This document shows positions 1 through 59,035 of a stretch of DNA of 64,000 nt, piece after piece. A program made the translations under genes and the position numbers. This DNA comes from a virus. Lineage: Duplodnaviria; Caudoviricetes. Under the pieces are notes generated by a model. The model did not search any database. It was not told the origin of the DNA and saw only the letters and a list, made by a program, of their open reading frames with translations. The stretch lies in the IMG/VR virus record IMGVR_UViG_3300020577_005688, positions 64,001 to 128,000 of that record, one strand, 5' to 3'. Each line of letters begins with the position of its first letter. Positions within the stretch are counted from its first letter, which is position 1.

Positions 1-297
1 CAACAGCGTATCCCACTTCTCTTTGATTGCGGGGTCCTTCTCATCAATGACAATCTCAGTGATGGGGTACTCAGACATCTTGTGAATGACCGCATTGATG
101 AGCGGATTCACGAGATAGTAGTACCGACACCACCGCAGGAGGGCCTTGAGGGAAGGAGGAAGGTAAGTATGGCCGATGTCGAAGAATGGAGATGGATACC
201 GAACTCCACTCCTCGACATGCCGTCAGCAGTTCTTCCACGGTTCCCAGAGAACCTGGAAGTTCCACCAAATCCAAGAGAGACGTTGTCCATTGACAT
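1..297 (-). CDS. Probable portal protein, N-terminal 99 codons (runs off the left edge; absent from the ORF track)
   Basis: Manual translation from ATG at 297: MSMDNVSLGFGGTSRFSGNRGRTADGMSRSGVRYPSPFFDIGHTYLPPSLKALLRWCRYYYLVNPLINAVIHKMSEYPITEIVIDEKDPAIKEKWDTLL. The start overlaps the upstream stop (TAATG). The Y..NP.I..VI.K..EYP.T pattern resembles portal N-termini. Confidence 0.65.
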   Translation of the reverse strand, partial: MSMDNVSLGFGGTSRFSGNRGRTADGMSRSGVRYPSPFFDIGHTYLPPSLKALLRWCRYYYLVNPLINAVIHKMSEYPITEIVIDEKDPAIKEKWDTLL

Positions 298-1274
298 TAT
301 TGATCTGCCTTCTCTTGTGGGAGTTTCTTAGGCTTGAATCCCGTCACTTTGTTGATGCCCTTACCGACCAACTTACCGGCTTGATCACCAACAACGCTGC
401 CGAGAATAGAACCTGAGATACCACGCTTGGCGGTTGCGAGGTTTCCAATTGTCGAACCTACGAATCGAGAAACTCTTTCTGCTCTTGAAGTCTGACCCGT
501 AGGGTCTTTCTTCAGAGCAGCGACGGCTTGAGGAGCGGTGAATGCGACTGTCATTCCGTGATTTGTCAACTTACCAGCTCGCTGAAGACCCGTAAGGTTA
601 CTCTTTCGAGATACGGCATCCTGGACGTCTGTCTTCATCCTCCCCAACTCTTGGCGTGCGTTTGAGATCGGACTCGTCAGGTCACTCGCCGCTCCCTTGA
701 GATTCCTTCCGATGCCTTTTACGTACTCTTTGGCACCGCCCTCTTCGGACTCTGCGATCTTCTCATGATTACGCTTCTTCCTCTTATGAAGAGCGTAGGC
801 ACCAGCGGCGAGGCCAGTTGCAGCAAGACCAGCAACACCTTTCTTCCAGTGTTTCTTAGCAAAAGAAGGAAGTTTTTGAGTAGATGTCGGTGATGCGTTT
901 GTTTGAGTAGGTGGTGATTTATTAGACGGTTTTTTCTGCGTACTATACTCTTTTCCACCTACTTCTTTGAGTCTTTTTCCTCTAGAAAATTCGTCGTAAC
1001 CATCCCCTACAGCATCTGATACAACTGTTCTACTCTTACGCAAACGTTCTGATTTCGCAATCTCAGGCCTCCGATCGACAAAGGGCCGTTCTTTTCCTTT
1101 GAGAGTATGGCGATATCCTCCAAGAACGTCTCCTTCGAGTCTAGCGCCGCTATCATCACTATTGAGCGAATGCCTCATTAGAACACCTCTCCGAGCATGG
1201 CGTCGAATCCACTCTTCAGAGACGGCAATCTTCTCAAGCTCATCAAGGAATGATCTAACGGTCATGAGGTTCAT
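297..1274 (-). CDS. Basic, Gly/Ala-rich putative internal head/ejection protein with FLDELEKIA leader
   Basis: ATG at 1274 overlaps the upstream TGA (ATGA). Has N-terminal SFLDELEKIA, an internal HEKIA, hydrophobic GVAGLAATGLAAGAYAL and Gly-zipper segments. Lies directly upstream of the portal. Confidence 0.55.
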   Translation of the reverse strand: MNLMTVRSFLDELEKIAVSEEWIRRHARRGVLMRHSLNSDDSGARLEGDVLGGYRHTLKGKERPFVDRRPEIAKSERLRKSRTVVSDAVGDGYDEFSRGKRLKEVGGKEYSTQKKPSNKSPPTQTNASPTSTQKLPSFAKKHWKKGVAGLAATGLAAGAYALHKRKKRNHEKIAESEEGGAKEYVKGIGRNLKGAASDLTSPISNARQELGRMKTDVQDAVSRKSNLTGLQRAGKLTNHGMTVAFTAPQAVAALKKDPTGQTSRAERVSRFVGSTIGNLATAKRGISGSILGSVVGDQAGKLVGKGINKVTGFKPKKLPQEKADQ

Positions 1275-2206
1275 ACAGTTCCTAGCCAAGACTTGAGAGC
1301 AACGAGCTGCTCAGAGAGTTGCCTTCTTCGGATGTTCATGTAGTCACGTGCGATAAGCAGCTTTGCGACTTGAACATCTACCTGTGTCTCTTGGAGATCA
1401 ACTTCTTTCGTTGGATGTTCCTTTACCTCATTCCAACGATGTTCGATGGGATCTGGGTCGAACTGAAGAACGAGTTTTACGTTCTGCCCCTTACCCTCTC
1501 GAACCAAATCTGGGTCTGGTTGAAATGAGAAACCATTCTCTGGGTCGAACCTCTTCGTACACGTGTCACAGATTCCGTCGTGGAAGAGAGCAGAGTCCTC
1601 ACTCCCGCAATCAAGGCACACGTATCTTGGGTGGCTCACCTCAACCTGCACAAAATCAAGAGGAGGTGGAACAAAGAACACATCTTCGTTCAAGACAGAA
1701 GCAGCAATGTACGCCTTCACCTCATCATTGAAAGGCTCTGGGCGAATTGAGTTCATGATGTCCACTCCCGCAAACAACTGGTCGAGGGATGGAGCCTGCA
1801 TGAACTCCCAGCGAGGAATATTGTTGTTCAGAGCCTGAATGACCTTCTCAAACACCTGCCAACTCTCCCAAGGCTTTCCAGTCGTATGAAGCGTCTTGAC
1901 GGCTTGAATCTTGGACCTGGCATGTTCTGAGACTTGAGACGAGAAGACCCTCTGAATCTCTTGGAAGATAGTCGACGTTTCCCAAGAGAACCAGTCAACT
2001 CCAAACGCCTTCAAGAGGGCGAGGTCAATGACTACTGGATGGGTGTCGTGGTGTGTAAAGATGTTCCGAACTGTGAGAGGTGTTTGAACGTCTGGATTAT
2101 CCTTCTTGAGTTCGGATTCCATCGCAGACCCCTCCGACGGTGCAGTTGGCTTCTTTGCCTCTGCACCACGAAGACGCTCAAACAGGTCAAGTTCTGGATT
2201 CTTCAT
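1271..2206 (-). CDS. Hypothetical head-module protein with a Zn-ribbon insert
   Basis: 311 aa ORF abutting both neighbours; contains CLDC...CDTC. Confidence 0.6.
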   Translation of the reverse strand: MKNPELDLFERLRGAEAKKPTAPSEGSAMESELKKDNPDVQTPLTVRNIFTHHDTHPVVIDLALLKAFGVDWFSWETSTIFQEIQRVFSSQVSEHARSKIQAVKTLHTTGKPWESWQVFEKVIQALNNNIPRWEFMQAPSLDQLFAGVDIMNSIRPEPFNDEVKAYIAASVLNEDVFFVPPPLDFVQVEVSHPRYVCLDCGSEDSALFHDGICDTCTKRFDPENGFSFQPDPDLVREGKGQNVKLVLQFDPDPIEHRWNEVKEHPTKEVDLQETQVDVQVAKLLIARDYMNIRRRQLSEQLVALKSWLGTV

Positions 2207-2755
2207 TTATGCCTTCTTGAACGTGTTGGCGATTCGAGCCATGACGCCCATTGCCTGTGGGCGAGCGGCGCTTCGAACAGGCCCAGCAGAAGGCAACGCA
2301 ACCGAGCTCCTCACTGCAGGAGCGGCTCTCTGCACAGGCTGATGCCCAACAGACGTGGAGGGCATGAAGTCGGAGTAGTGGGAGGGATCCTTCTTCATCA
2401 AAGCAGGAGCGGCCTGAGTCTGAGGCTTCCCTGCTGCTCTCTGAGAATCGACGAGCATGTGATTTTTCATCATGGCCGCATTGGATACTGTAGCAGCTTT
2501 CTTAGTGAGGAGCCTCTTCCCAATACCCTTAAGCATATCCTTGTTGTGGATCATCTCCCCAGCAAGGATGGAGCCGGTAAACGCAGCGGACGCGCCGTCC
2601 TTGACTCGCTCGCCTTTGGATTTGTGCTTATCAAAAGCACCCGCACCTTCAATCGCAGTCAGACCTCCGAGACCTGTCATCGACAGTCCAGCAGGCAGCC
2701 CACCGACAGCAATCTTCTCAAGCTCATCAAAGAACGACCCCATGTGGATGCTCAT
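2207..2755 (-). CDS. Putative internal head protein with FFDELEKIA leader
   Basis: Begins MSIHMGSFFDELEKIA, followed by Gly-rich hydrophobic and basic low-complexity sequence. Confidence 0.55.
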   Translation of the reverse strand: MSIHMGSFFDELEKIAVGGLPAGLSMTGLGGLTAIEGAGAFDKHKSKGERVKDGASAAFTGSILAGEMIHNKDMLKGIGKRLLTKKAATVSNAAMMKNHMLVDSQRAAGKPQTQAAPALMKKDPSHYSDFMPSTSVGHQPVQRAAPAVRSSVALPSAGPVRSAARPQAMGVMARIANTFKKA

Positions 2756-4510: not shown

Positions 4511-4519
4511 GGCATAAGA
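4511..4519 (+). promoter_or_regulatory. GGCATAAGA candidate phage promoter -10 element
   Basis: The motif recurs in intergenic DNA ahead of plus-strand genes at 4511, 58990, 61832 and (variant) 9181. Confidence 0.5.
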
Positions 4520-4556
4520 GTATTGGCGGCAACGCCTTACCAATTGGAGGAATGAA

Positions 4557-16137: not shown

Positions 16138-16156
16138 CCACAACTCGTGAGGCAAA

Positions 16157-37671: not shown

Positions 37672-37953
37672 ATGGGTGTTTTCAAGGAAATGAAATCAGA
37701 AGATGTTTGGAAGGCAGTTGAGGGTCATGAGGACGTTATCACTCCTGAGCTCAAAAAGGAGGAGGCCTTCTTTAGGAATCAGGTATGCCCTCTATGTCGA
37801 AGCTCCAATCATCAGTCTTTCGTAAATCCGTCGACACCATTTGCCCCTGGTGCTGTGCTGCCGAGCAAGTTCTTGAGATGTCTTGCTTGCTCGGCAGAGT
37901 TCGACCCTTACAGTCGAATGATTACAAAAGCACCTACTGACGAACGAGGTTGA
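37672..37953 (+). CDS. Zn-ribbon protein, lone plus-strand gene inside the tail module
   Basis: AGGAG SD, ATG 37672; CPLC...CLAC; exactly fills the gap between two minus-strand genes. Confidence 0.65.
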   Translation: MGVFKEMKSEDVWKAVEGHEDVITPELKKEEAFFRNQVCPLCRSSNHQSFVNPSTPFAPGAVLPSKFLRCLACSAEFDPYSRMITKAPTDERG

Positions 37954-40900
37954 TTCGTTCACCAGAAGGAAGAGGGTCCTGGCCAGAGACGTCAGGACCT
38001 GGAATAAAGTATGAGACCCGTGCAGTTCCATCGTAAGGAACCTGAGTCTCAACGCCTCCAAGCTGGTTCGAGCTGAACTCCAACCAGACCCTACGACCCC
38101 AATCGTGGAGAACTGTCACGACGCTCGTTGGGGTAATCGGGTTTCCGCCTCTCTTGGCAATGATGTCTTGAATCTCTGAGACGTCGACGGCAGTCTCGAT
38201 TGGGAGGTTGTCGAGGTATGTGATGACGTCAGAGGCAACGACACTCGGTGCGCTCCCTCCAACATAGGTAGCGTCGTATGAGACGTACGTTGGCAAGAAG
38301 TGACGAACGAGAATGTTTGCCGAACTAATCCGGTCCTGTCCTGAGTTGGCAAACTCCTGGATCCTTCGAACCAAGTCAGACTGCTCGTACGTGACTTGAA
38401 GAGAGGAGCCGACAAGGTTCAAGAAGTTCTCGGCACTGTCTGTACTTCCAGTGGGGAGGATCTGAGGAGAGATCTCGATGAAGCCCTCTTCCTTCATCGA
38501 GTAGGTCAACGTCCTGTCATCTACCTTGTGACGATATCCGACGCTGGAGAAGGACTCAGGAGCAATTTCAAGATAGGAACCGTCCGACAAATTCGAAGAC
38601 TCTTGAGGGTTCAGAGAGACGACTTCTGTATCGAAGAAGACGGTAGGCCCAAAGGTGTTCTGCTCCATCTCAGATGGAGTAACTCGTCGAACGTCTCTTC
38701 TGTAGATGCGGAAAGGCTGCTTCAGTCCCTTCCTCAAGACTGCCCCCAAGGGGATTGCTGCCCTGGAGATGGAGAGGTCTGTGTACGTGATGGAGGAAAG
38801 AGCATGCTCTTTCACAACCGACTCGTACATCCTGAAGGGACGGGCTGCGTAGTTCTCCGTACCGCTCAGCAAAGCGGTCGGTGCAGTTGCAGGAGCCTCT
38901 GTGATGAGGAAGTTCGCATCTGACTCAGTCTTCAGTGTCGGACTTCCAGGGAAGTTTGACGTTCTAGAGATGACGGCAGTACCAAGGACAGGCGCAGAGG
39001 TGATTTGGTACGAGCCTTGGAACGGGTACGGAAGACCGAAGACGGAAATGTACTTATTGACGTACGGAGTGAAGTCAGTTCCTGTCGAGATGAGTACGTT
39101 GTTTGTTCCGTTGTGTCCCCACTGATTCAGGGTTCCCTGGAGAAGAATAGTCGGAGTGGATTCAGTCATTGCTTGGTCGAGAATCAAGTTTCGACCATCC
39201 ACATACTTCACAACACGGTAGCTTCCCTTGTCGGTTCCCTCTTCGATGAAGAAGAGATTCCCAACCATGTCTGCATTGAAGATGTTTCCTGCAGAGGTTG
39301 GGGCAGTTACTTGGTTGGACCCAGCGATAGTCTGAACGACAGACTGTCTTGCGTAGGTGGTTCCGTGGAAGAAAACCTCTTCGTGCGTGGAGAGGATATC
39401 ACCATCCCGTACTCCAAGACTGAAGATGGACACTCTTCCTGGATCTGTGAACGAGACAATGAGACCTTGAGTCAGCGCTCCGGCGACCGTAGCAGAACCT
39501 GGAGCTCCGTTATCGTCTGTGATGATTTCACCGACAACGAATTCTCCCTCAACATTCGCAAGACCGAGCGTACCTGTAAGACCCAGGTCCAGGTCACTGA
39601 GAATTGTCGCTGTTGCGCCGCTCGTTGCGCCAGTGAGTTTCCTACCAACAGTGAAGTTTGCAGTTTGGGTGGAGTAAGTGAGTGCTCCACTCAAATCCAA
39701 GTCACGAGGAAGGTCCTTTGGATCCGTGTCGCTGACCAGTCGAGGAGGGACGATCTCCTGCTGACGATACCGATTGGGGTCAGGTCGAAACTTCACCAAC
39801 TCCCCGGACTCTGTCTTGTAGATGAACTCAGTTGACTGACTGTCTCCTGTTCTCTGCTCAAGAACAGTTGGAGACATCATATATGTTCTGAGAACTCCAC
39901 GAGCCGGGTCTCCCCACTCATAGTCACAGAATGCCAATGAGTCGATTGCGGTTTGGAGTGTTGGAGCAGAAGGAACAGCGGTCACTCCCAGAGTGGTAAG
40001 AGCAGAGTTGAGCTTCGTACCAAGTGAGTTGTGAAGATTCTGGAAGAACGATGGGTAAGAGATGGCTCCCGTGATTGGAAACTCGGTTACCGAGGCACCA
40101 CCGCCCACGTCGTTCAAGAAGTCGAACAACTGGCCATACACATCAACCGGGAACTTCCCGTAGATCTTGATGAAGTAGGTCCAGACTGTACGGGTTGGAG
40201 AAGCAAGCCTGTGCTTGAACTTCACAACTTCTTTGATGAGGTAACTTCCCTTGTTTGGGCCATTCTTGATGGTCAGACACTCACCAGGACGTGGATCGAT
40301 TGGAGGGAAGTTCTCGGCGTCATCTGAGACTTCTGACACAGAGACGAAGTAGCTGGCCGGGTCAAAGGCATCTCCATTCCCTGCCCCATCTCCACGGAAA
40401 TCGAGCTCCGAGTAGGTTGCGTCTGGGAACAGCATCGGGAAGTACCAACCGATTGCTGTGTCGAATCCAAGAGAGTACCTACGGTCTCCGGACGGGGCCG
40501 CTACTGGACCAAGTGACAGGTAAGTGGTCAGAGTGGAAGTAAGGCTTGGCAAAACAAAGCCACTCACCCTCTGAGAACCACCACGAACACGCGCAGAGGT
40601 GAAGGCCTTCGTCGGAACAACTCCAACAGGGTCAGCGAGTGGGATTTGAATTCCAGTAGACTGACTTGAGGAGTCGAGAAGCAGCAGCTCTTTGATACGA
40701 ACAAGAGGACGCTCTACAGGTTCGAGAGCAGAGAAGATCTCATACTCAAGACCTGTGAGAGAGGCAGAGGCAGGTCTATCGAGCAACAGTCCCTGTCCTC
40801 CCAACACAGGATCAAACCCAGTGATGGTGTAGTCTCCAGCAAGGATGCCAGTCTTGACGCGAAGGATGTCACCGACTGCAGCTCCAAAACCAATCACATC

Positions 40901-42589
40901 ATTCGACAGCAACTGGAAGAGGTTCGAACCGATGACTGTTTGAAGATCATTGGCGAGGATTCCTCCGAAGGGGAACTTCGGAATCTTTGGTTCGAAAGGA
41001 TCGACTTTGATCTTTCGAATGATCCGATACCTCAAATTGCTCTGGGAGTTGGCCAGATTTGAAGTGAGATACAGATTGGAGGAAGTGACCTTCATGATGA
41101 CATACACACCAATGTCATCACCTGTCTCAACGCTGAGAAGGTCTCCGGGCAGAATTCCAACTGCTTGGAAATCAATCGAAGGAGTTCCAGGGTCTGCAAC
41201 CTTGTTCTTCTCAGTCGTAAGCCCGAACGTCTGAAGAGTCAGACGTTCAACAAAAGACCCTGAATCTGACAATCCCTCAAAGACAGAAGTCGAAGCAGGC
41301 TGGAGGATTGGGCGAATGTAGAAGTCAGTGTGGCCAAAAACGTGAACCTCTCCAGACGGAACAGAGAAGTTCGATTGACCAATCGAGGGCAGAGAGGAGA
41401 TCTGAACGGTCCCAGGACGTGTGAACCCACCCTCGAACCCGTACCCATCGGCTACAACAACTCCTGAAGGGAACTCTCCAGAGAATCGAACCAAGTACGT
41501 CATCTGAAAGGTAGTTCCGCTCGGAACAGGGCCGACGAGAACTTCCTCAACAGTCAGCCGAACGAGCCGAGTTGTCTGAAGAAGAGCTGGGTAGGTTGCA
41601 GTGTCGAGATACAAGTACAGAACATCTCCAGCTTTAGGAGCTTCCGCCTCTGGTCCCTCAATCGTTCTTGCCTGAACGAGGGCCAGCTTCTTCCAGATCG
41701 TCACACGTCCCGTAATCCACTGGTGTCCAGGAGATGATGCGACGAGAATGTCTCGCTGCATTTCCGGGTCTTCAGAACCGATGACTTGAACCGCTCGAAG
41801 CTCTGTTTGGAACACATCGTTCAAACGAGCGGTTGCTCCTCTTCTTGTGTTGAGGGACCTCTCGTTGAGAGCCTGTCGTGCCTGAGCAACGAAGGTCGTT
41901 GTGTCGACTCTTGCAGAACCATTCCTGAACTTCTGAAGGTTCCCAACTCGAATCACACCAAACAGACCATCAACCCCTGTGAGTTGGTTGACGTCAATGT
42001 TGTAGTCGACTCCCTCGCTCTCTGCCTTCAAAGCAACATCAAAGAAGTACTGAGACCCAGAACGATTGAAGGCCATCTCCTCAGCAGTGATGGAGACTGG
42101 ATTTGTTGGGAAGAAGCCGAGCCCAGAGGCAGTGAAGAAACGGGTCGTAATCTCAACCTGAATATTGGTTGGGTTAGAAAAGTACAAACGACCGGTTCCC
42201 GTCGAGAATGAGCCTGCGTCTCTCTCATCGAAGACGTTTGCAACCAATGCATCAGCGTCATCATCAGAAAGAACAGAGGGGTCTTTGAGTGATTGATTCC
42301 TCTTGATGGACTGCGTCTCTCTCTGGAACGGAGTGAGGAGCAGGATGAGAGGCTTGACGAACGTGTCTCGAATGACGCCTGGATCAGTCGCAATGAGGTC
42401 TGGAAACTCCTGAGCAAACCGGTCGGTGATGAAACTATCGATATCCGTCTCGAACGGATCCGTCCCGAGGTACGTCATCACTGGCTCGATGAATTGAATC
42501 TGAGCCGGTGACCCGGAATCCAAGTCAATCGTTGGATCGAGGGCGCGGAGACGGTCCTCAAGGAAGGTCTTCAAATCGGTAGTGGCCAT
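37934..42589 (-). CDS. Baseplate wedge protein (baseplate J/gp6-like), with large insertions
   Basis: PGVIRDTFVKP...DADALVANVF.ER, LKAESEGVDYN, NG.ARVDT; follows the gp25-like gene. Confidence 0.7.
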   Translation of the reverse strand: MATTDLKTFLEDRLRALDPTIDLDSGSPAQIQFIEPVMTYLGTDPFETDIDSFITDRFAQEFPDLIATDPGVIRDTFVKPLILLLTPFQRETQSIKRNQSLKDPSVLSDDDADALVANVFDERDAGSFSTGTGRLYFSNPTNIQVEITTRFFTASGLGFFPTNPVSITAEEMAFNRSGSQYFFDVALKAESEGVDYNIDVNQLTGVDGLFGVIRVGNLQKFRNGSARVDTTTFVAQARQALNERSLNTRRGATARLNDVFQTELRAVQVIGSEDPEMQRDILVASSPGHQWITGRVTIWKKLALVQARTIEGPEAEAPKAGDVLYLYLDTATYPALLQTTRLVRLTVEEVLVGPVPSGTTFQMTYLVRFSGEFPSGVVVADGYGFEGGFTRPGTVQISSLPSIGQSNFSVPSGEVHVFGHTDFYIRPILQPASTSVFEGLSDSGSFVERLTLQTFGLTTEKNKVADPGTPSIDFQAVGILPGDLLSVETGDDIGVYVIMKVTSSNLYLTSNLANSQSNLRYRIIRKIKVDPFEPKIPKFPFGGILANDLQTVIGSNLFQLLSNDVIGFGAAVGDILRVKTGILAGDYTITGFDPVLGGQGLLLDRPASASLTGLEYEIFSALEPVERPLVRIKELLLLDSSSQSTGIQIPLADPVGVVPTKAFTSARVRGGSQRVSGFVLPSLTSTLTTYLSLGPVAAPSGDRRYSLGFDTAIGWYFPMLFPDATYSELDFRGDGAGNGDAFDPASYFVSVSEVSDDAENFPPIDPRPGECLTIKNGPNKGSYLIKEVVKFKHRLASPTRTVWTYFIKIYGKFPVDVYGQLFDFLNDVGGGASVTEFPITGAISYPSFFQNLHNSLGTKLNSALTTLGVTAVPSAPTLQTAIDSLAFCDYEWGDPARGVLRTYMMSPTVLEQRTGDSQSTEFIYKTESGELVKFRPDPNRYRQQEIVPPRLVSDTDPKDLPRDLDLSGALTYSTQTANFTVGRKLTGATSGATATILSDLDLGLTGTLGLANVEGEFVVGEIITDDNGAPGSATVAGALTQGLIVSFTDPGRVSIFSLGVRDGDILSTHEEVFFHGTTYARQSVVQTIAGSNQVTAPTSAGNIFNADMVGNLFFIEEGTDKGSYRVVKYVDGRNLILDQAMTESTPTILLQGTLNQWGHNGTNNVLISTGTDFTPYVNKYISVFGLPYPFQGSYQITSAPVLGTAVISRTSNFPGSPTLKTESDANFLITEAPATAPTALLSGTENYAARPFRMYESVVKEHALSSITYTDLSISRAAIPLGAVLRKGLKQPFRIYRRDVRRVTPSEMEQNTFGPTVFFDTEVVSLNPQESSNLSDGSYLEIAPESFSSVGYRHKVDDRTLTYSMKEEGFIEISPQILPTGSTDSAENFLNLVGSSLQVTYEQSDLVRRIQEFANSGQDRISSANILVRHFLPTYVSYDATYVGGSAPSVVASDVITYLDNLPIETAVDVSEIQDIIAKRGGNPITPTSVVTVLHDWGRRVWLEFSSNQLGGVETQVPYDGTARVSYFIPGPDVSGQDPLPSGERINLVRQ

Positions 42590-48813: not shown

Positions 48814-49656
48814 TTACTCCAAATGAGGTTTCATCTTCCGAAAGATGGAAGACTTGAGCTTTGAAACTTTGGAGCTGTCCATCTTGAGCTGCTTTGCAAT
48901 CTCCCCAGGCTTCAGAGAAGGCTTTCCAAAGAGGCCAAAGGTGTACTCGTGAACAGCCCTCTCCTCTGGAGTGAGCTGGTGATAGATGAGATGAATCACT
49001 TCCTGGTCTCTTGAGGATAGGAAGGCAGCCGGAGAGGCATCCATAGAGCCAGAGGCAATCAAGCCCTTTCTCTGGTCCTTGGAGAGGCGCTTAATCTCCT
49101 TCATCGAGAACCCTGTGTGTTCTGCCAGGGTGTGTGCGTCTGGTTCGAAGCCAAGCCTCTCGGTGAGCTCCGCTTTGGCGGAATTGAACTTACCAATCTT
49201 GGCAGCAATCGGTTCTGTAATTCGAGCTACATTCTGATGTGTCTGGATGAACCGATTGGCCTTCTTCAGGTAGTTCTGAACCCAAGTTCCGAGCTGAGTA
49301 CCCTTGTCAGGGTCGTACCTGTGGAGAGCCTCTACCGCTAGTCTCTTGTGTTCAAAGTCGATGGCCGCGTTTGGGATCTCAACATTGTTCTTGTAGATGC
49401 GAGCTCTGTTCTCAATCAGAGGCTGCATCGACTTCAACAACGGCTCAAGATGCTCAGGCTTCTTACCGCCTGTATTCCATGTCTTCCAGAGTTCGAGCTC
49501 GGTGTGCTTCTTCGCACCGAGTTCCTTCTTCTTCTCGTCCTTCGTCTTCTCGAACTTGAAGACAGGAATAGGCTTCGGGCTGGGCACACGATTCGCCGCC
49601 GAGATCTTCTCAAGGACCCACTGAATGGCCTCTGAATTTTCGGTGGCAGAGTTCAT
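48814..49656 (-). CDS. Sigma70-family RNA polymerase sigma factor (FliA/SigF-like domain layout)
   Basis: Region 2 EALHRYDPDKG.QLGTW, region 3 ELTERLGFEPD..TLAEHTG, region 4 LTPEERAV..YTFGL...EIAKQL.MDSSKVSKL. Confidence 0.8.
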   Translation of the reverse strand: MNSATENSEAIQWVLEKISAANRVPSPKPIPVFKFEKTKDEKKKELGAKKHTELELWKTWNTGGKKPEHLEPLLKSMQPLIENRARIYKNNVEIPNAAIDFEHKRLAVEALHRYDPDKGTQLGTWVQNYLKKANRFIQTHQNVARITEPIAAKIGKFNSAKAELTERLGFEPDAHTLAEHTGFSMKEIKRLSKDQRKGLIASGSMDASPAAFLSSRDQEVIHLIYHQLTPEERAVHEYTFGLFGKPSLKPGEIAKQLKMDSSKVSKLKSSIFRKMKPHLE

Positions 49657-49660
49657 GTGA

Positions 49661-50116
49661 TTACTTTGAAGCTCCTGAGAGGATGTTGCTATCTCCAGAA
49701 GGACCTGAGGTGGGTGCTGTCGTTGGCTTCTTCAATGAGATAGCCGGACGAGCCACACTTCCAGACCTTCCGGCTACCTTCAGCAACTCTGGAAATCTCC
49801 TCTGAGCCTCTGTGAGGTGAGCGCCCGACTCGAAGAAGTGGTGAACGTTGTAGGCGATTTTGATTTTCTCAAAACGCTCAAACTCCTGCTCACTGGCGGA
49901 CGCCATCTTCAACAAGTTATCGGCCATCGTCTGAGCACCGGGTGCTTGGACAAAGAGCTTGTTCATCAAGTCCTGGTCACGCTTACGGCTTTGAGGAACG
50001 TTCTCAAACAGCGCATTCGTATCCCTTCGAGTGTCCTCTCGGGTCAAACGAACGTACTTCATGAAGTTCAGTTCTTCTTCGCCGAGGTTACCGACTGCTT
50101 CTTTGTTCTTACTCAT
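49661..50116 (-). CDS. Hypothetical protein with K-x-A motifs
   Basis: LLKMAS, KIKIAY, LLKVAG. Confidence 0.55.
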   Translation of the reverse strand: MSKNKEAVGNLGEEELNFMKYVRLTREDTRRDTNALFENVPQSRKRDQDLMNKLFVQAPGAQTMADNLLKMASASEQEFERFEKIKIAYNVHHFFESGAHLTEAQRRFPELLKVAGRSGSVARPAISLKKPTTAPTSGPSGDSNILSGASK

Positions 50117-50502
50117 TTTGGGCCCACCTTTGGGAGAAGCCCCTTTCGACCAATCTTGGGGGCAAGTTGATGAATGCTCTTTGACTTGCTGGCCATCCCC
50201 AAGAACTGAGATGGGGTCTTTCCAACCAAGGCCGCTGTCTTCTTCAATGACTCTCGATATGCCTTGCGTCTCTTTTCCTTCTCAGTCTGTGCTTTGTGCC
50301 AGCCAAAGCCACCAAGCGCACCTACGAGGGTTCCGACAGTCTTTCTACGAGGGGAGGCTCCCTGAGACGTAGACAGGGAAAGGTCCGCCAGCGTCCTACC
50401 AACGACAGAGCCCGTCAACATCGGAGCCCCGACATCGACTGCCTTCTCGCTGAGCGGCTTCTTCCTCTCAGCTGTCTTGAAGAAGATGGAAAGGGATTCC
50501 AT
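50113..50502 (-). CDS. Basic Gly-zipper protein with K-T-A motifs
   Basis: IFFKTAE, LKKTAA, GTLVGALGGFG. Confidence 0.55.
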   Translation of the reverse strand: MESLSIFFKTAERKKPLSEKAVDVGAPMLTGSVVGRTLADLSLSTSQGASPRRKTVGTLVGALGGFGWHKAQTEKEKRRKAYRESLKKTAALVGKTPSQFLGMASKSKSIHQLAPKIGRKGLLPKVGPK

Positions 50503-50504
50503 GA

Positions 50505-50810
50505 TTACATCCCCTGCTGACGACGGACCTCTCGGCCCATTCTCCAGTCATCCTTGGCCTTCTTGAGCTGGTCTCCGGCAAGAGCGCCAGTCGCAAGGAG
50601 TGCCAGAGCCTTACCCTTGCCCTTGAGCAAGGACTTGCTCTCCCCAGAGCTCATCTTTGACATCGTCGCCTTCTTCACCAACTTCTTCTTGGCCAACAGT
50701 GTGGAAGCCTTGAAGGGGCGAACGCCGCTTCGAGAGAATCCAGCAATCTTCTCCAGCTCATCATTGAAACCACGACGAAGTGCGGTCAGCTCAGTATCTG
50801 TCATGTTCAT
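50505..50810 (-). CDS. Basic small protein with FNDELEKIA leader
   Basis: GAGGA SD before ATG 50810; RGFNDELEKIAG; ALALLATGALAG. Confidence 0.6.
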   Translation of the reverse strand: MNMTDTELTALRRGFNDELEKIAGFSRSGVRPFKASTLLAKKKLVKKATMSKMSSGESKSLLKGKGKALALLATGALAGDQLKKAKDDWRMGREVRRQQGM

Positions 50811-50869
50811 GGGGGTCCTCACGGGTGTCATCCGAATCTACAAGGTCAAACTTCCAGTGCCAATGGAGC

Positions 50870-53800
50870 TTAGCCCCTCAAACCTGGACCTCCTGAAAGG
50901 GCTTCGACGTATGCTCGGACTTGATCCAATTTCTCTTTCCGAACGTCGTATCCAGGAGGGATTGGGGACTTGTCTCCTGTGTTGTTGATTCTTGGGAGCA
51001 ATTTATCCGGTTCTTGGAGAAGTCCTGCGAGCTTACCCTGATCGATAGCCTTTTCGTCAATTGCAAGACTATGGAATCCGGGCTTTCCTTTCGTAACCGT
51101 CGGAACTCCCTTTCCATCGTACGAGATGTCGAGGTCGGAGGTTCCAAAGATGTCTGCCATCGTTGCAATCGGTCGGTAGGTGAACGACCTCACAAACTGA
51201 TCGATGTCTTTTCCTTGAGACCTCACCATCCCGTAAAAGTAGGCGACAACATTCACAGCACGTTCAATCGACAGCTTGGAGATGTTGTCCTGCCTGGTCG
51301 CGAGGGTTGCTTGAATTTCTTCGAACTTTGTCTTTGCATCGAACACATCCCCTTCAGGAGATTCGGAAGCTGAGACGATTTGTTCAGCCAACCCAGAGAA
51401 GGCGAGCTCATCAATGATTGAGGTTGTCCCGAAGAAAGGACGATAGATTTCTTCCCCAATCTTTGCGTTTGCATACTTTGGAGAGAACCAAGTCGGACGA
51501 ATGACTTCTTCAACAGGCACTTGCTGAGTCACAGTAATATTGACGTCCTCGTGTACGATGACAGAGCGAAACACCTGCTTCCCTGCATACGTACCAGTCT
51601 TCACTGTCACAAGGTCTGGTGATACGACCTCGATGCCGACGATGGTCCCAGAGGCACCGAACAGGGCCTTTGACCCGGTCGTGATTGTGATGCCAGGTCC
51701 TTTTGGAATCGAGACAGTCCTCTGAACTCCAGCGATTCGACCATTTGGGTCGACTAGATTGTTATCTTGGGATTCAGTTGTCTGTGAAGTCTGAGGAATC
51801 TCTTTTGTCAAAGTTGTGGAAGGAACTGACGGATTGGCGGAGTTCCTTCGGTACGATGCCTTCGCAGTCGTCTTCTGTGACTTCACTTTAGAGGTCTTCG
51901 CTGTCTTGACCTGTGGGGTCATTCCAACGAGAGCGGCCAACAGGCTGTCTCTGGACGAAGCATTGGCCTGTGCGAGTGCTGAATCAGATGTGATAGCAAC
52001 TCGAATTCGACGAGTCTTCTTTCCAGTGTTCTCGGAGAAGATTCCTACGAACTCATCATCCGACCCAAGGTGACGTCGAGCATGGTGCATCTCGACAGTG
52101 GTTGTTCCACCATTCTGGTCGATGGTGTGACTGACAGCCCCAATCATTCCCAACAACTGGTACGGCGCTCCAAGTAGGCTCTTATCCGTTCCATTCCTTT
52201 GAACCAGGTCGAGGACCTTCTTGTCTGTGGAGTCAATCGTATCCGATTCTTGAACCTGTAGGGCGGTGCGAAGAACAGATTCCTTCGGCATGAACGGCTT
52301 GAGAATGACAACGCCTGGGAATCCGCACACGATGAACGGATTCAACTTCCCGGCAATGGCTACTTTCCTTGGACCGAATCGGTACTTGAAGAAGTGGAAC
52401 AGAGCGGCTCGATTGAGCCAGCTAAGGCGAGCGCCTCTGACTTTATCTCCCTCTGCTCCGGTCTTCTTGTCTACGGTTGCTGTATTTGCAAGCCACTCTG
52501 TTCTTGGAATAATCCCAGTATGCCTCTCATGAGGCATGAGGACTCTATAGCCACCAACTCCGGCTTGTTTTTGGATCTTCTCCATGTCTAGGCCGATGCT
52601 CGGGGCCATCACTACGCCACGACCAAACTGGTCCCTTCCGGTAAGAGTGTCATATGCTTGAGTGAGTGACCTGGTCACCTCACTCAAATACATTCTGTCA
52701 AAAGATACCTGAGTAAAGTGCTCAGGGAAGATGACGTTGCAACGTGGAGCTGGCGCGAAGAAACAGTCCGGGCGGATGATTTGAGAGCGGAGCCTGGCCG
52801 ATGAGGAAGTCGACTGAACACCAGTCTTGAACGTTACCTTTGGCTGATCTGGGGATGCGATTGCATTGAGTGCTTTTTGGATGGAGATGATAGAGTCGTT
52901 CACGGACCTCGTGAAGTTGTTTACAGAAGGATTTTGGTAGGAGAGATCAGCCGCTAGGTTTTGCAGAACATACTTGGCCTGCTCAACAAAAGACGAGATT
53001 GTCTTTGCGATAGAACCCACGGCGTTCAACTTCAGAACAACTCCGCCAAGCTCATCAGACGTCTGCGTTGCAAATCGAATGATTGGAGTCTTGTTAGAGA
53101 AGTCAAAGTCCAACGCACTCAGGCACCTATTCTTGATGGTTGAGAGAGTGGCCGCTGCGGCTTTAACATTCGGATTTTGAGAGAGCTCTGTAGTTGCGTA
53201 TGTCCCCGTCTCGGTTCCCTCGATTGTTGCGTCGTACTTGGCTGCGGGGTTCGGAACAACATCATAGTAAATATACTTACAGAGCAAGTTCAACATGTCT
53301 CTGAAGGTTACTTGTTGACCGATGTTCTGAAGACCATTTCGAAGCCACTCGTTGAATACCGTCCCTGAGAACAGTCTCGATGCGGAGCTGTCGTTCTCTT
53401 CGGCTACAATTTGAGAGAGGAGTCGAGTTCTGAGTTCTGCAACGGTAAAGAAATCATTGACTCCTTTATGATGTGTTGGAACTCCTCCCATTGCTTCCAA
53501 CATGACGATAATGCCACCAGCGAGACCAGACACATTTTGAAGCCCAGGTGTTTTTGGTGTCTGATTCAGCCACTTGGTGATGACATTACCCTGCTGATTG
53601 ACAATGTCATCGAAGAGAGAGGCGTTCGAACCGTAGACTGCTGACTGGTTGTAGAACGCGTTTCCGTTCGGGCCGTACTCAATTGCAGTAGCGTGACAGG
53701 CGTCCCAATAACTGGAGAAATCGAGACATTGCAGAACGAGGCTTCTCTGACTCGAACTCTGTCCAAACGCAAATCCAATGACTTCTCCACAGAAGAGGAG

Positions 53801-54067
53801 ATGGTACTTCAGTCTATCTTCTGTCTCAGGAATTCCCCGTTGCTTAGCGAGTGCAGCTTCTTCTGGAAGGAGAGAGGTCTGGTCCAAGAAGAAGAGATGA
53901 ACCATCGTCCTAGGCTTCAGGTCCATACCTTCATCAAGAGGGATGACTTGAATCGAAGCTGTAGCTGGTGAGTTCGGGGTGATGTTGACGGACGCAGAGA
54001 TTACGGGAACCTCCTGTCCCTCCAAAAACAGTCGAAGCTTGAGCGGCCTTCCAATCCCTTCAGGCAT
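50870..54067 (-). CDS. Baseplate hub-like protein
   Basis: 1065 aa, three genes downstream of the tape measure; N-terminal LRLFLEGQEVPVISASV...LQCLD and a VSHTID motif like gp27/gpD hubs. Confidence 0.55.
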   Translation of the reverse strand: MPEGIGRPLKLRLFLEGQEVPVISASVNITPNSPATASIQVIPLDEGMDLKPRTMVHLFFLDQTSLLPEEAALAKQRGIPETEDRLKYHLLFCGEVIGFAFGQSSSQRSLVLQCLDFSSYWDACHATAIEYGPNGNAFYNQSAVYGSNASLFDDIVNQQGNVITKWLNQTPKTPGLQNVSGLAGGIIVMLEAMGGVPTHHKGVNDFFTVAELRTRLLSQIVAEENDSSASRLFSGTVFNEWLRNGLQNIGQQVTFRDMLNLLCKYIYYDVVPNPAAKYDATIEGTETGTYATTELSQNPNVKAAAATLSTIKNRCLSALDFDFSNKTPIIRFATQTSDELGGVVLKLNAVGSIAKTISSFVEQAKYVLQNLAADLSYQNPSVNNFTRSVNDSIISIQKALNAIASPDQPKVTFKTGVQSTSSSARLRSQIIRPDCFFAPAPRCNVIFPEHFTQVSFDRMYLSEVTRSLTQAYDTLTGRDQFGRGVVMAPSIGLDMEKIQKQAGVGGYRVLMPHERHTGIIPRTEWLANTATVDKKTGAEGDKVRGARLSWLNRAALFHFFKYRFGPRKVAIAGKLNPFIVCGFPGVVILKPFMPKESVLRTALQVQESDTIDSTDKKVLDLVQRNGTDKSLLGAPYQLLGMIGAVSHTIDQNGGTTTVEMHHARRHLGSDDEFVGIFSENTGKKTRRIRVAITSDSALAQANASSRDSLLAALVGMTPQVKTAKTSKVKSQKTTAKASYRRNSANPSVPSTTLTKEIPQTSQTTESQDNNLVDPNGRIAGVQRTVSIPKGPGITITTGSKALFGASGTIVGIEVVSPDLVTVKTGTYAGKQVFRSVIVHEDVNITVTQQVPVEEVIRPTWFSPKYANAKIGEEIYRPFFGTTSIIDELAFSGLAEQIVSASESPEGDVFDAKTKFEEIQATLATRQDNISKLSIERAVNVVAYFYGMVRSQGKDIDQFVRSFTYRPIATMADIFGTSDLDISYDGKGVPTVTKGKPGFHSLAIDEKAIDQGKLAGLLQEPDKLLPRINNTGDKSPIPPGYDVRKEKLDQVRAYVEALSGGPGLRG

Positions 54068-54077
54068 CTATTACTCC

Positions 54078-55391
54078 TTAACCAACGACTGGAACTGGGG
54101 ATACAGCTCTGATTGCCTCAAGAGGGGAGGTGTTCACGACACTGAGAGTTGTGTTTGCTGCTTGAGCCGTTTGCCAGACGGCAGAGCTTCCAACTGGAAT
54201 GAGGCCAACTCCGTTTCGAATGATGAAACTCGAAACAAGAGCTTCGCTCTCTGAAGGAATGCTAAATCCTGCACGAGCCCAGGAGACCCGAGCCTGGTTA
54301 ACCAAGTCTTGGTTTCTCTTTTGAGTGAGAGTTGGGTCCTCGTAGAGAACGTTCGAAACGAATGATGAGCCGTACTGAGAAGACGAGCCAACGAACTCAT
54401 CTACGTTTTGATTGAACTCAGAATAACGAAGAACTCCATACCATGCTTGAGGAGTTTGTTTTGAGCGCACAACATCTGCTGCATCGTAAGCGAATGCACC
54501 AGCAAATCCAACCGGCACTCGAAGAATGTCCCCACGAGCAAGATTCGAGAGAGTCTGAGCGGCTGAGTTGGCGATGTCTTGAGCTCTCTGCCAGGTTTGC
54601 TGTACAGCTTGAAGACCCGCAGTCAGTCCGTCAAAGAGAGAGGGCGGGTTTCTGATCTGTTCCGGGGTCTTCGTGTCTCCAGTTGAGGTGAGAGTCGGAG
54701 TCTGGACAATCTCTCCGATCGCATCCAACTGCTGCCTATCTCCACGTGTGATGTATCTGTCTTCAATTGACGTCCCATCGCCGAGATTGGAGAACGATGA
54801 GTAACCAGTAAGGAACATCGTAAATTGAAAATTGACGAAGTTCTTATCGTTTGAATTCTTCGATGCAGAACTCGCGATGATGTACCCACTGACAAGGGTT
54901 TGATCGAAAGCGATGTATACCCGAGCCTCATTCTCGACACACTTCGTTCCTCGGAGATAGTTCTCATAGTTATCCCACCACTCGGCTTCCCAGTTGAAGT
55001 CGAAGGTGTTGAGGAGAACTCCTCCAAACGTCACCATTCTAGGACGCTCGCCGAAGAGGAAGATGTAAGGCTCTCCGAAGGTCTCTAGAATCTGTTGCTT
55101 CTCCATTCTCTCTTCAGAAACCTGTTGAAGTAGGAAATTGGAGTACACGTCTGTCTGGCGAGCCGTTCGAGATCCCTGAGAACCTGCGGCGTCTGTGAGC
55201 AAGATTGTACGACCATCTCCACGAACTACTCTCATGGTTGCGTAGGTGTCTTCTTTGATGGTAATTCCACGAGTCGGACGTCGGACGCTCTTCGACGTAA
55301 GTCCCGCTCCAGGAGACTTTGCAGTCGAGAGTTGAGAGTCGAATTGCTGACGCTGTCGGTCTGGGATGACTTGAAGGGTTACGAGACTCAC
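54078..55391 (-). CDS. Tail tube initiator/distal tail-type protein
   Basis: ETFGEPYIFLFGERPRMVTFGGVL...FQFTM; located after the tape measure. Confidence 0.5.
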   Translation of the reverse strand: MSLVTLQVIPDRQRQQFDSQLSTAKSPGAGLTSKSVRRPTRGITIKEDTYATMRVVRGDGRTILLTDAAGSQGSRTARQTDVYSNFLLQQVSEERMEKQQILETFGEPYIFLFGERPRMVTFGGVLLNTFDFNWEAEWWDNYENYLRGTKCVENEARVYIAFDQTLVSGYIIASSASKNSNDKNFVNFQFTMFLTGYSSFSNLGDGTSIEDRYITRGDRQQLDAIGEIVQTPTLTSTGDTKTPEQIRNPPSLFDGLTAGLQAVQQTWQRAQDIANSAAQTLSNLARGDILRVPVGFAGAFAYDAADVVRSKQTPQAWYGVLRYSEFNQNVDEFVGSSSQYGSSFVSNVLYEDPTLTQKRNQDLVNQARVSWARAGFSIPSESEALVSSFIIRNGVGLIPVGSSAVWQTAQAANTTLSVVNTSPLEAIRAVSPVPVVG

Positions 55392-55597
55392 AGTTCAATC
55401 CCCAATCGAATGAGATAATCCCTCAGAGACCTCTGAACTCGTCTGTCTGTCAATTCTTTACCAGATTCAATCGACGAAGCTTGGACTCTTGCTTCTGTAT
55501 TGATGACATCATCAATTGTTGGGTTGTTGATGAGTTTGATGATGACAGGCTTTCCTTCGACATTGAAGCGACTCTCGATTTCATCTCGAACACTCAT
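55388..55597 (-). CDS. Small hypothetical protein
   Basis: 69 aa; ATGA overlaps on both sides. Confidence 0.55.
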   Translation of the reverse strand: MSVRDEIESRFNVEGKPVIIKLINNPTIDDVINTEARVQASSIESGKELTDRRVQRSLRDYLIRLGIEL

Positions 55598-58500
55598 GTC
55601 TTTGTCTCCCCTGGGAGTGCTGTCTGTCCTCCCTTACCTGCACTGTCACTCTCTCCAGAACCGCCCCACGGAAACCAACCTTTTTTCTCCGTTGCAAGTT
55701 TAGTATCCAGACTGCGGAGAATCTTATTTTGCTCTGTAAGAGTATCGATGAGCGTGTCATCTTTGCTCTTTGCCTTAGAACCGGAAGCTCCTGCTTGCGT
55801 TGTAGACAGGGCCTTACTTGCACCGGTCTGTTTAGAGAGTTTCTCAATCGCAGACTCAGATAGTTTGCCCCCAGCTTTGAAGTCTGTAGAGAAGACATCA
55901 TTGGTGCTGACGCCGAATTCTTTTGCAACCTCTTCCGCAGAAGAGAAGCTCTTAGAGGATAGTCTCTTTCTACGTTCATCCTCTGCAGCCGCCGCGATTG
56001 CTGTATCCCCACCCGCTTCGATAGCTGCTTCCCTATCTTTCTTACTGAGACCTCTAAAAGACTTAGAGTACTTAGAAAATGCGCCTGAGAATTTCTCAAT
56101 AACTTCGTCTCTCTTTTTCACATCTGAGCCGGCCGCCACTAGTTCAGACCTATAATCTGCCATGGCCTTACCGAATTCTCTCTGAGCATCCCCATTCGGA
56201 CCTTCTGCTGCGTTGTCGATCAAGGTCTGGCCTTGAGACGTCACGTTCTTGAAAAATTCATCTGCAGCAGCCGAGTTAGCATCAGAGGTGTAATTCTCAA
56301 TTGCTTTTTGGGCTGCTGCGACCTTCTTCTCATTACTTGGATCAAATCCTTTTGTCGCTTCAGCCAGACTCTTGACCTCACTCTCTGATAGTTTCTCACC
56401 TGGCTTTAGCTTCGAGTTAATGAGCTTTCTTGCTCCAGAGTAATCTCCGGTCTCAATGGCATCTCTTAGAGCCACAGCGATGCTTGAGTCTTTGATTACC
56501 TCTCCAAACGCTTTGGCATGCTTTGAGGAAGACTTAACAAAAGAAGACGCTCCCTCTCCAAGAACAGTACCAAGCTCTTCAGTTGATGCTTTGAGAGATT
56601 TCTGAATTTCTACGCTCGACCTAGATCCGGCAACCGAACCAATGAGATTACCGGCCCCAGAAGCAGCCGCCATCTGAGCAAAGACATTCTTACCTGTTGG
56701 ATCGTTCGACGCGTCTTGATAAGACCGTAGGAGATCCTTCTCACTATCAGAGAGGTTGTTCGCGCTCATCTGGCCTTCGAGAGTTTCCCTACTGATGTTC
56801 TTGATTCTTGTTGGGTCTCTGAATCCACTCTTCTCTGCCGCAGATTGGACTTTCTTCTCCATTCCTCTTGAGATGATGTCTACCTTTTGAGCTGCACTCT
56901 TTCCTGTCATATCTGACCCGGATAGGACAGATGCGAGAGCTGCCTCTGCGCCCTTTCCTGCTACATTCCCAGATCTGAGTTTTGCGGCCATCGCAGCTTG
57001 CCCAGAAGCGGAGTCAGTTCCGTAGAGGCGAGATGCGAACTCTGCCTCCTGACCCTCAGTCATTCCCCCAGTGAGGCCAGTCGTAAACCTTGCAAGAGCA
57101 GAATCCGAACCTCCAAACTCACGAACAAAAGAACGAGCGCCACTAAGAAGTCCAGCACCTCCAAAGAGAGTGTCTTTACCAACTCTGAGAAGCCTATCTC
57201 CAGTAGATGCTGAGGAGCGGGAAGAGGTCTTCATCAGACCGGCGATGAGTTCCTTCGACTGAGCAGAATTTGAACCTGAGAATGCCTTTGAGATTGCAGA
57301 AGCTCGTTCTTCTGTAAGAGTCGAGACCTCTCTCCCAACCAAGTCGTCAAAGAATGAATCTACACTCTTTGCGATTGAGTTTTGAATCTCCGCGCCTGCT
57401 TGTTCTAGTTTTCCAATCGTTGCGCCGTGGAGCCGTGTCTTGATCTTCTGCATGATTGCAGATGGATCTGTCCGTTCACGCTGGGAGGCCTGCCTCTGCC
57501 TCATCTTGGCAAAAGACGCAGCTTCCGAACCTCCTAGATTTCCTTGCATTCCCTCAGCAATATCAATCTCACCAGCGCTCATATTGGTCAATCGTTGCAT
57601 GACCAAATTCGTGCCGTCATTATCTCCTCGAAGACCGAGAGCGCCCTTCATCATTGTGAAGGCACCACCAGGCCCAATCTGACCAGCGAGGGATGCAACG
57701 AGGTCAGATTGGCGAGCAGTGAATGATTTCTTCTGGGCATCCGTAAGTTGAGAAGCCTTTGCTTTCAGTTCATCGATGCTCAGCTCGCCTGCGTTGAATC
57801 TCTTGGAAAGAGACTCGTCAACACCAATTGCACGACCAGACTCGTCGTACTTCATCATTCCTGCCATCGCGAGACGACCGGCCGAGGTCTGACCAAACCT
57901 CATCATGCCGCCAAACATCTTCTGGGCCAGCGCCATTTGCGCGTCTGCACCTTGAAGGCCTGTTACATCTTCAACTGCCCCTTCACGGAGCCTCCCAGAC
58001 ATCTGAGCCAGGCCGATGCTTTGTGCAATGTTGGTAACTGCTGTTGCACCGAGACCACGGCGAGCCCCAAATGACATTGCCATGTCTGCGCCTGCTTGCT
58101 GCAGACCGGCAACTTGCCCAACCGACGCACCAGTTACTGAGGAAGTAAACTGAGCACTGACCGCGTTCTTGAGCTGGGCTCCTCTGTTGTAGAACCCAGA
58201 GCTCCGACTTGCTGAGAAGAACTGTTCTGCCTCTTCCATCGTCGTGCCGAGAACCTTCGACATGTCTTTGATGGTAGTGAGGGCCTCCCTGAATCGAGAC
58301 TGGAACTCAGAGGCATTCTTTACTCCCTGCATTACTCCAGAGCTCTTCATCCTCGACATTACGCCCTGAAGCTCTTCAAACGACGTCATCAGCTCCGGAA
58401 TGTGCGAGAGAGAACGCGTCATGTCTCCGATTGACTTTGCATCGTCTCTAGAGAATCCAGCCCCAGTTCGAGACGACATGTTGGCAAAGTTGTACTGAGA

Positions 58501-58920: not shown

Positions 58921-58989
58921 TCACGAAACCTTGGAAAGGGGTCGAGGGAACAGTATCACCTGGACGGTAGCAACTCCAGGGATGGGGAG

Positions 58990-58998
58990 GGCATAAGA
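58990..58998 (+). promoter_or_regulatory. GGCATAAGA candidate phage promoter element
   Basis: Identical to 4511-4519; 37 nt upstream of the ATG at 59036. Confidence 0.5.
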
Positions 58999-59035
58999 CT
59001 ATAGTGCAATCTACCTGTTTCCATAGGGGTTTTTC

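Follow-up and report, generated by a model that had tools for sequence, protein, structure and literature searches.

A phage sigma factor encoded among virion genes and its possible role as the specificity subunit of a virion-delivered RNA polymerase

A gene for a sigma-70-family protein of 280 amino acids (aa) lies among structural genes at 48814-49656 of a 64,000-nucleotide (nt) stretch of viral DNA (Duplodnaviria; Caudoviricetes; positions 64,001 to 128,000 of IMG/VR record IMGVR_UViG_3300020577_005688, a 141-kb contig), which is referred to below as the window. On balance it seems probable that this sigma is the promoter-specificity subunit of the phage's own RNA polymerase, a single-chain beta-beta' enzyme, and that both proteins are made late, packed and ejected. 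Both genes are found inside virion operons and the two proteins are therefore made late; most likely they would be packed into the particle and delivered together with the DNA, and once inside a new host the holoenzyme would begin to transcribe the genes for replication and nucleotide metabolism, which are carried on the opposite strand, from private GGYATAAG promoters. A sigma gene in a structural operon, combined with a lineage-specific motif before replication genes of the other strand, is a sensible layout if the virion delivers the sigma to a new host.

The protein is a very divergent yet complete sigma2-3-4 protein. It passes the Pfam cut-off for Sigma70_r3 (32.3 bits against 25.3, 1.1e-7; repeated in the genome scan) and matches PHROG 351, 'RNA polymerase sigma factor' (8.5e-12). 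The AlphaFold model (mean pLDDT, i.e., predicted local distance difference test score, 85.5; input of 46 homologues) consists of an N-terminal helix, an unstructured stretch and three helical bundles (Table 1), and the best 50 PDB matches to this model are all sigma chains of holoenzyme structures (50/50). An earlier reading made from the sequence only had identified a sigma70-family protein with an N-terminal extension before the core, and both identifications stand. Region 4 is matched weakly by Pfam Sigma70_r4 (15.3 bits, under the 24.1 cut-off), the FliA/SigBFG models reach aa 277-278 and the fold matches also span this region. Region 2, which is responsible for core binding and -10 recognition, is not recognized by Pfam Sigma70_r2; the corresponding residues superpose within full-length structural matches to sigma S, A, and B chains, and NCBIfam SigBFG/SigF models span aa 73-188, weakly. 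None of the named bacterial sigma subfamilies (RpoD, RpoS, FliA/WhiG, SigB/F/G, or extracytoplasmic function) is reached at the curated NCBIfam cut-offs, as all 19 of 19 matches fall far below them and the best scores 37.8 bits against a cut-off of 384.5. A divergent region 2 and the lack of a bacterial subfamily fit a non-host core as the partner of the sigma. A protein search of 5.8 billion sequences returned 79 homologues, all metagenomic and several of them on contigs of 189-204 kb, and 76 of the 79 family members are devoid of Cys. No second sigma-like gene was found on the 141-kb contig or in a complete 197-kb relative, i.e., there is one per genome.

The candidate core enzyme is encoded in the head module, near the portal gene and together with terminase, capsid, and protease-like genes. 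One open reading frame (ORF) contains Rpb2 domains 2, 3, and 6 (aa 155-933) followed by Rpb1 domains 1-5 (aa 1172-2351), and is interrupted directly after the catalytic Rpb1_2 domain by an intein (Intein_splicing and LAGLIDADG_3, aa ~1454-1785); in the relatives, the contigs of which were taken as IMG/VR copies, the polymerase is an uninterrupted single ORF of ~2070-2200 aa without intein. The extein has four Cys only, arranged as C-x61-C-x6-C-x2-C and spaced like the beta' zinc site. Of 11 viral contigs that carry the sigma, 10 encode a single-ORF polymerase, and so do all nine near-complete ones; the cultured phages with this sigma, Salmonella phage Arash and three Vibrio phages, likewise carry a polymerase. 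According to reviews, phage multisubunit polymerases come without a sigma homologue and phage sigmas belong to phages that lack a polymerase (PMC13282480, PMC7824862). The present lineage breaks this rule, as sigma and multisubunit polymerase are both encoded. It had been proposed from the sequence that the sigma redirects the host enzyme as a light-weight alternative to a virion RNA polymerase; with a 2453-aa polymerase in this phage and one in 9/9 near-complete relatives this proposal is unsupported.

The location of the sigma gene in a late structural block, also proposed at the outset, is confirmed. The gene is separated from each of its neighbors by 3-4 nt in what is a virion operon, and the orthologues of its flanking genes in Arash, gp6, gp8, and gp13, all encode virion proteins verified by mass spectrometry (MS). 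Published evidence comes from Arash particles, which were purified on a sucrose gradient and analyzed by liquid chromatography-MS (PMC10585845). The larger polymerase chain, Gp206, was the most-detected protein of all (128 unique peptides, 3516 spectra), the second chain, Gp216, gave 40 peptides and 1210 spectra, and the sigma, Gp10, was covered to 100% by 24 unique peptides and 467 spectra (PMC10585845). Divided by the lengths in the Arash record (234 aa for the sigma, 1525 and 606 aa for the polymerase chains), this corresponds to 0.10 unique peptides per residue for the sigma, the same as for the capsid protein (0.10), compared to 0.084 for Gp206 and 0.055 for the portal, and to 2.0 spectra per residue for the sigma against 2.3 and 2.0 for the two polymerase chains. 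Association of the sigma with virions thus has published support in a cultured relative, but the head-protein tag that was to direct packaging would not be needed there: the Arash sigma has no N-terminal extension and the Arash genome has no such tags, so packaging in Arash can depend on neither. For the phage of the window, packaging of the sigma is plausible.

A further line of evidence is a promoter-like motif. All 14 copies of GGYATAAG on the contig are on the plus strand (14:0), as are all 16 of the looser G[GC]NATAAG (16:0). In relatives the forward:reverse counts are 0:14, 1:20, and 5:1, with controls of 0-5, and the bias flips with the orientation of the genome; in Arash the count is 1:30, with controls of 4 and 6. 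Wherever a strand bias exists the motif is found on the strand opposite to sigma, polymerase, and structural genes, i.e., the strand of the replication genes, and no conserved motif of this kind was found on the structural strand. The motif starts exactly 46 nt before three plus-strand start codons, both divergent control regions included, one of which, with GGCATAAGA at 58990, heads the operon of the sigma; in Arash it is located 27-48 nt before reverse-strand genes. A further site is found at window position 21582, among others. The context consists of a weak CAAnA ~15-19 nt upstream, GGYATAAGA, and a TTG 3 nt downstream. The signal lies in strand exclusivity and position and not in the raw count; a simple count of GGNATAAG in the window is not significant (4 vs. 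2.5). The motif looks like an extended -10 element that ends in G, at a position where host sigma-70 promoters have a near-invariant T, and its distribution suggests a private promoter class common to very different hosts. Since the element is common to a Salmonella phage and to uncultured freshwater phages which share the sigma and the polymerase, this pair would, by elimination, be what reads it. Upstream of the head operon, the divergent region 4407-4556 contains a host-like sigma-70 promoter on the minus strand (TTGACC-N18-TACACT) that faces away from the GGCATAAGA of the plus strand; in the second divergent region (58921-59035) no minus-strand match of this quality is present. A scan for sigma-70-type promoters and terminators around the sigma gene gave no excess over shuffled sequences.

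The extension in front of the sigma core consists of a conserved helix, in which AIQWVLEKISAA is found, and a flexible linker. The consensus of the peptide in the family is aL-x-W-V-L-x-K-[LI]-[SAG]-A-K-K, and in 40 aligned homologues the successive columns hold A in 29, L in 34, W in 37, V in 33, L in 39, and K in 40, followed by a hydrophobic residue (phi) in 40, S/A/G in 40, A in 39, and then K-K. The strict pattern is present in 65 of the 79 homologues, where it begins at residue 5-15, and variants such as LLDKIAAKK occur in at least five more. The residue after K-phi is S in 28, A in 26, and G in 11, and the position in front of the K is variable (E in 31, D in 13, G in 7, and others). 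The spacing between peptide and core ranges from 24 to 71 residues and the linker is rich in A (21%), P (20%), and K (19%). Conservation of the leader had been named as a check on its significance; it holds for about 70 of the 79 homologues, all within a clade whose sigmas are at least ~43% identical to the sigma of the window, but not beyond it. Sigmas of farther relatives have a short [ST]-N-P-[LI]-[DS]-E-x-L-x-x-K-E N-terminus directly abutting the core, and those of Arash (gp10) and Vibrio phage D69 start at the core itself, at about aa 51 of the window sigma. When a profile of the peptide was run against the proteins of the genome, it recognized the sigma only (26.8 bits; runner-up 5.1). 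The peptide is new to the freshwater clade and has the form of a short amphipathic helix, held on a flexible leash rich in Ala, Pro, and Lys. Its likeliest role is that of a docking or processing element that engages a phage partner.

Six otherwise unrelated proteins of the contig carry a true N-terminal tag, [FL]-x-D-E-L-x-K-I-[AG]. Three are encoded in the window (Table 1) and three outside it (genome ~15969-16307, 35937-36170, and 51958-52629), the last beginning at the stop codon of the polymerase gene; several of the six have Gly-zipper hydrophobic segments. The relatives have 2-8 tagged proteins each, compared to none for a reversed-pattern control, and in nearly all cases the start codon is 6-14 residues upstream of the DEL core. 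No FxDELxKIA tags were found in Arash or in Vibrio D69. The peptide of the sigma had been taken for a leader of this class, ELEKIA, and this did not survive. A profile built from 24 true tags and scored against 156 N-termini gives the sigma 2.7 bits (rank 9 of 156, E ~1) against 19.5-26 bits for the six true tags, and although hhalign places tag and peptide in the same register (F/L, L/L, K/K, I/L, A/S) the alignment is not significant (P ~0.1). The peptide is thereby ruled out as an FxDELxKIA leader and forms a separate class, though an L-x-K-phi-small core is common to both and its position agrees with that of the tags (~5-25 residues from the N-terminus). The claim that the sigma gene directly follows three tagged proteins holds for one of them, at 50505-50831; the other two have no true tag. 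The generic K-x-[AS] pattern is at chance level in every gene block (observed/expected 0.84-1.13) and was rejected as a code.

A narrower motif is enriched in the head block (genome 10305-68406). E-K-[ILVM]-[AS] occurs there 16 times against 2.45 expected, a value reached in 0 of 2000 shuffles, and is specific among 25 sibling motifs (z 9.7, compared to 0.5 for the mirror image K-E-phi-[AS]). Copies are found in scaffold-like proteins beside the capsid gene, at the N-terminus of the capsid protein (two), and in the protease-like protein (examples are genome 34495-34857, 34878-35927, and 32809-34125), and E-K-[ILVM]-A is, as judged from the sequence, a candidate site for a maturation protease. 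The less strict phi-x-K-phi-[AS] is in excess in the head block (23 vs. 9.9 expected, 0/1000 shuffles) and in the seven-gene cluster around the sigma (5 vs. 1.0, 2/1000 shuffles; the cluster was chosen post hoc). Elsewhere it is not enriched: the remaining tail block has 4 vs. 4.5 and the plus-strand genes have 5 vs. 8.0. The protease-like gene (genome 37182-38774) is assigned by one PHROG match (phrog_18299, 1.8e-6); a PDB sequence search with its product gave no match. The longest ORF of the capsid gene (genome 32809-34125) opens at an upstream TTG, and the conserved protein opens at an internal Met (MSAVPAKVLNDLFFEKVA). The capsid protein has no long delta domain, separate scaffold-like genes being present upstream, and its N-terminal K-[IL]-A site is kept inside the clade and drifts in distant relatives and in Arash. 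For these reasons the capsid N-terminus was set aside as uninformative with regard to cleavage.

It is conceivable that the helix is a capsid-targeting pro-sequence, that the prohead protease clips the sigma after K-I-S, and that the mature sigma is ejected. Such a model is compatible with a sigma-polymerase pair carried in the virion and would add a role for the peptide. In its favor, the peptide resembles the true tags in its start position (residue 5-15) and has K-phi-small-A at its end in nearly all of the 40 aligned homologues, and a protease-like gene is encoded by the phage. The head block shows a strong and specific excess of E-K-phi-A (16 vs. 2.3-2.5 expected), with copies in scaffold-like proteins, at the start of the capsid protein, and in the protease-like protein itself; phi-x-K-phi-[AS] is in excess in the sigma cluster too, and in all relatives examined one or two truly tagged proteins and a protein with an FFEKVA-like site come before the sigma. 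On the other hand all 16 of the E-K-phi-[AS] sites in the head block end in A and never in S, whereas the sigma reads E-K-I-S, and the residue before the K is variable in the family; the tag profile and hhalign do not connect peptide and tags; distant sigmas lack the peptide although their genomes carry tags; and the Arash sigma, reported at 100% coverage, has no extension in a genome without tags. Processing of this kind is therefore possible but unlikely. An elaborate version of it, in which a complete sigma-dependent holoenzyme is packed, the helix of the freshwater-clade pro-sigma addresses the prohead and is clipped at L-x-K-phi-small/A, and the enzyme is active only in particles and in the next host, is decidedly doubtful.

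Alternatively the peptide may stay uncleaved and serve, not as a packaging signal, but to hold the sigma to the polymerase, or to DNA through the basic linker, and so keep the few injected copies together once they have been ejected. A short conserved amphipathic helix on a flexible linker of variable length would suit this, as would the occurrence of the peptide on no other protein of the genome, which is expected if it binds a partner specific to the sigma and not if it is a general address tag. This model is derived from the architecture of the protein and, as Arash and the distant relatives have no such peptide, it appears rather unlikely.

Several observations weigh against a virion-delivered holoenzyme as such. 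GGYATAAG is absent or unbiased in two relatives (G005 and G009) and in Vibrio D69, and the promoters are assigned by elimination, as there is only one sigma, only one polymerase, and a motif shared across hosts. The evidence from particles concerns the orthologue in Arash, which is outside this phage and its clade, and Arash manages without the N-terminal peptide. As many as 116 of the 272 Arash proteins were 'detected', metabolic enzymes included, on particles from a sucrose gradient with no caesium chloride step, and the authors themselves allow for carry-over (PMC10585845). It may therefore be argued that sigma and polymerase act inside the infected cell only, e.g., as a middle or late transcription machine produced together with the structural proteins, and that the signal in Arash particles is carry-over from proteins that are abundant late in infection; the detected set includes ribonucleotide reductase (RNR), a kinase, ligases, and helicases, and a phage sigma gene in a late operon is no proof of packaging. 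The likely contaminants were, however, seen at low levels (11 unique peptides for RNR, 5 for deoxynucleoside monophosphate kinase, and 2 each for primase, ligase, and two ATP-dependent helicases; PMC10585845), whereas the polymerase was the most-detected protein and the density of unique peptides for the sigma equals that of the capsid protein and exceeds that of metabolic enzymes several-fold. Free enzyme should not co-sediment with 95-nm capsids, and no conserved motif of the GGYATAAG kind was found on the structural strand. A purely intracellular role is for these reasons rather improbable. Retargeting of the host core polymerase by an injected sigma that replaces a virion polymerase, which would be the usual role of phage sigma factors (PMC7824862, PMC13282480) and would agree with a fold shared with bacterial sigmas bound to bacterial cores, is very improbable given the polymerase that accompanies the sigma in all near-complete relatives, a region 2 too divergent for the Pfam model, and a single promoter-like motif in a Salmonella phage and uncultured freshwater phages alike.

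The contig is arranged in three blocks, a minus-strand head module with genes for capsid protein, protease-like protein, terminase, and portal, a plus-strand replication block (ResIII helicase, uracil-DNA glycosylase, DnaB, primase, family A DNA polymerase, a RecA-like protein, and class II RNR), and a minus-strand tail/baseplate block that includes the sigma. The features are collected in Table 1. Gene order around the sigma is kept in every relative examined, and the sigma gene comes after one or two truly tagged proteins in 5/5 relatives examined in this respect (41-85% sigma identity). The second site of the 151-aa protein directly upstream reads FPELRKVA, YPELLKVA, AFFEKVAS, or AFFEKLSA in orthologues and resembles LFFEKVAT of the capsid protein. 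A virion protein of 1108 aa (55594-58920) has zero Cys (P ~1.5e-5). Pfam and PHROGs returned almost nothing for the eight immediate neighbors and seven large tail-block proteins, and a DNA search of a phage collection with 6 kb around the sigma gave no match.

Table 1. Features of the sigma gene, its surroundings and the candidate partners (window coordinates unless marked genome).
Feature	Position	Strand	Basis or remark
Sigma-70-family gene, 280 aa	48814..49656	minus	ORF list, Pfam, PHROG, AlphaFold, PDB
Conserved N-terminal helix (EAIQWVLEKISAA)	49594..49647, aa 4-21	minus	homologue alignment and model
Flexible linker	49543..49593, aa 22-38	minus	homologue alignment and model
Sigma domain 2, divergent	49237..49542, aa 39-140	minus	structural alignment to sigma chains; no Sigma70_r2 match
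Sigma domain 3	49048..49215, aa 148-203	minus	Pfam Sigma70_r3 (1.1e-7) and model
Sigma domain 4	48820..49014, aa 215-279	minus	weak Pfam Sigma70_r4 and model
Fused beta-beta' RNA polymerase, 2453 aa	genome 52629-59990, ~4-11 kb before window start	minus	domain matches
GGCATAAGA promoter-like element	4511..4519	plus	motif end 38 nt before start of replication block (4557)
GGCATAAGA promoter-like element	58990..58998	plus	motif end 38 nt before first plus-strand start codon (59036)
Head-module protein, true tag SFLDELEKIA	297..1289	minus	tag profile
Head-module Gly-zipper protein, true tag SFFDELEKIA	2207..2755	minus	tag profile
1551-aa baseplate-like protein	37934..42589	minus	similar to Arash virion protein gp13
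151-aa protein directly upstream of sigma, 4-nt gap	49661..50116	minus	sites NLLKMAS, PELLKVAG
129-aa protein without tag or phi-x-K-phi-[AS] site	50113..50502	minus	
108-aa basic Gly-zipper protein, true tag GFNDELEKIA	50505..50831	minus	position stays tagged in relatives
1065-aa virion protein	50870..54067	minus	N-terminus similar to Arash gp8 ('cell wall hydrolase, structural protein')
437-aa protein	54078..55391	minus	orthologue of Arash virion protein gp6

The lineage comprises the cultured Salmonella phage Arash and many uncultured phages of 170-200 kb, and in Arash the two proteins are found together in particles. If both the pairing and the packaging are true, this would be the first virion-delivered polymerase to use a classical sigma subunit, with a testable promoter, GGYATAAG, and a cultured model at hand. 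It would also provide a compact natural beta-beta'-sigma system in which to follow how a sigma and its core co-evolve away from the bacterial enzyme, and the clade-specific peptide on its flexible leash could reveal how proteins are directed to capsids or held together inside them.

The closest known system is that of Arash (gp10, gp206, and gp216; OQ632216, PMC10585845), where the sigma is a table entry without analysis. The two sigmas are orthologous, with 31% identity over the core, and the gene order, i.e., a large virion protein, one or more small proteins, the sigma, and further virion proteins, is the same. In both phages a bacterial-type polymerase gene is located near the portal gene, in Arash directly downstream of it, and the same element, GGTATAAG, is present on the non-structural strand. 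Unlike the phage of the window, Arash has a sigma without N-terminal peptide and linker, a genome without FxDELxKIA tags, and a polymerase split over two genes instead of one 2453-aa chain with an intein. The Vibrio phages D69, D148, and D181 are further close, unstudied relatives of the sigma-polymerase system.

The two kinds of N-terminal sequence have separate parallels. T4 capsid-targeting sequences on the internal proteins IPI-III and Alt are cleaved by gp21, and the leaders of the six FxDELxKIA proteins are similar in that they are short, are carried by unrelated proteins, and end in a putative protease site; the peptide of the sigma does not score as such a leader, and to our knowledge T4 packages no sigma. 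In Bacillus subtilis, pro-sigma E and K have an extension of ~20-30 residues, the removal of which by a dedicated protease licenses activity. The sigma described here would resemble them if its extension were removed in the same manner, but the homology is limited to the general sigma fold, as SigK models match region 4 only and far under cut-off, and the setting would be the capsid and not the sporulation membrane.

Virion polymerases are expressed with the structural genes, packed, and ejected, and they read phage-specific early promoters; the enzyme of N4 is a single-subunit T7-like domain. The phiKZ-type virion enzymes consist of split beta/beta' homologues without a sigma homologue, and the phage of the window differs from N4 and phiKZ in that a genuine sigma-70-family protein, known here from the genes, accompanies a fused beta-beta' chain (PMC7598289, PMC13282480). 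With T4 gp55, SPO1 gp28 and gp34, and the sigmas of polymerase-less jumbo phages (PMC7824862) it shares a phage-encoded protein of the sigma-70 family, but those phages lack a polymerase and make their sigma before the genes that it switches on, whereas in the lineage described here the phage has a polymerase of its own and the sigma gene is part of a virion operon.

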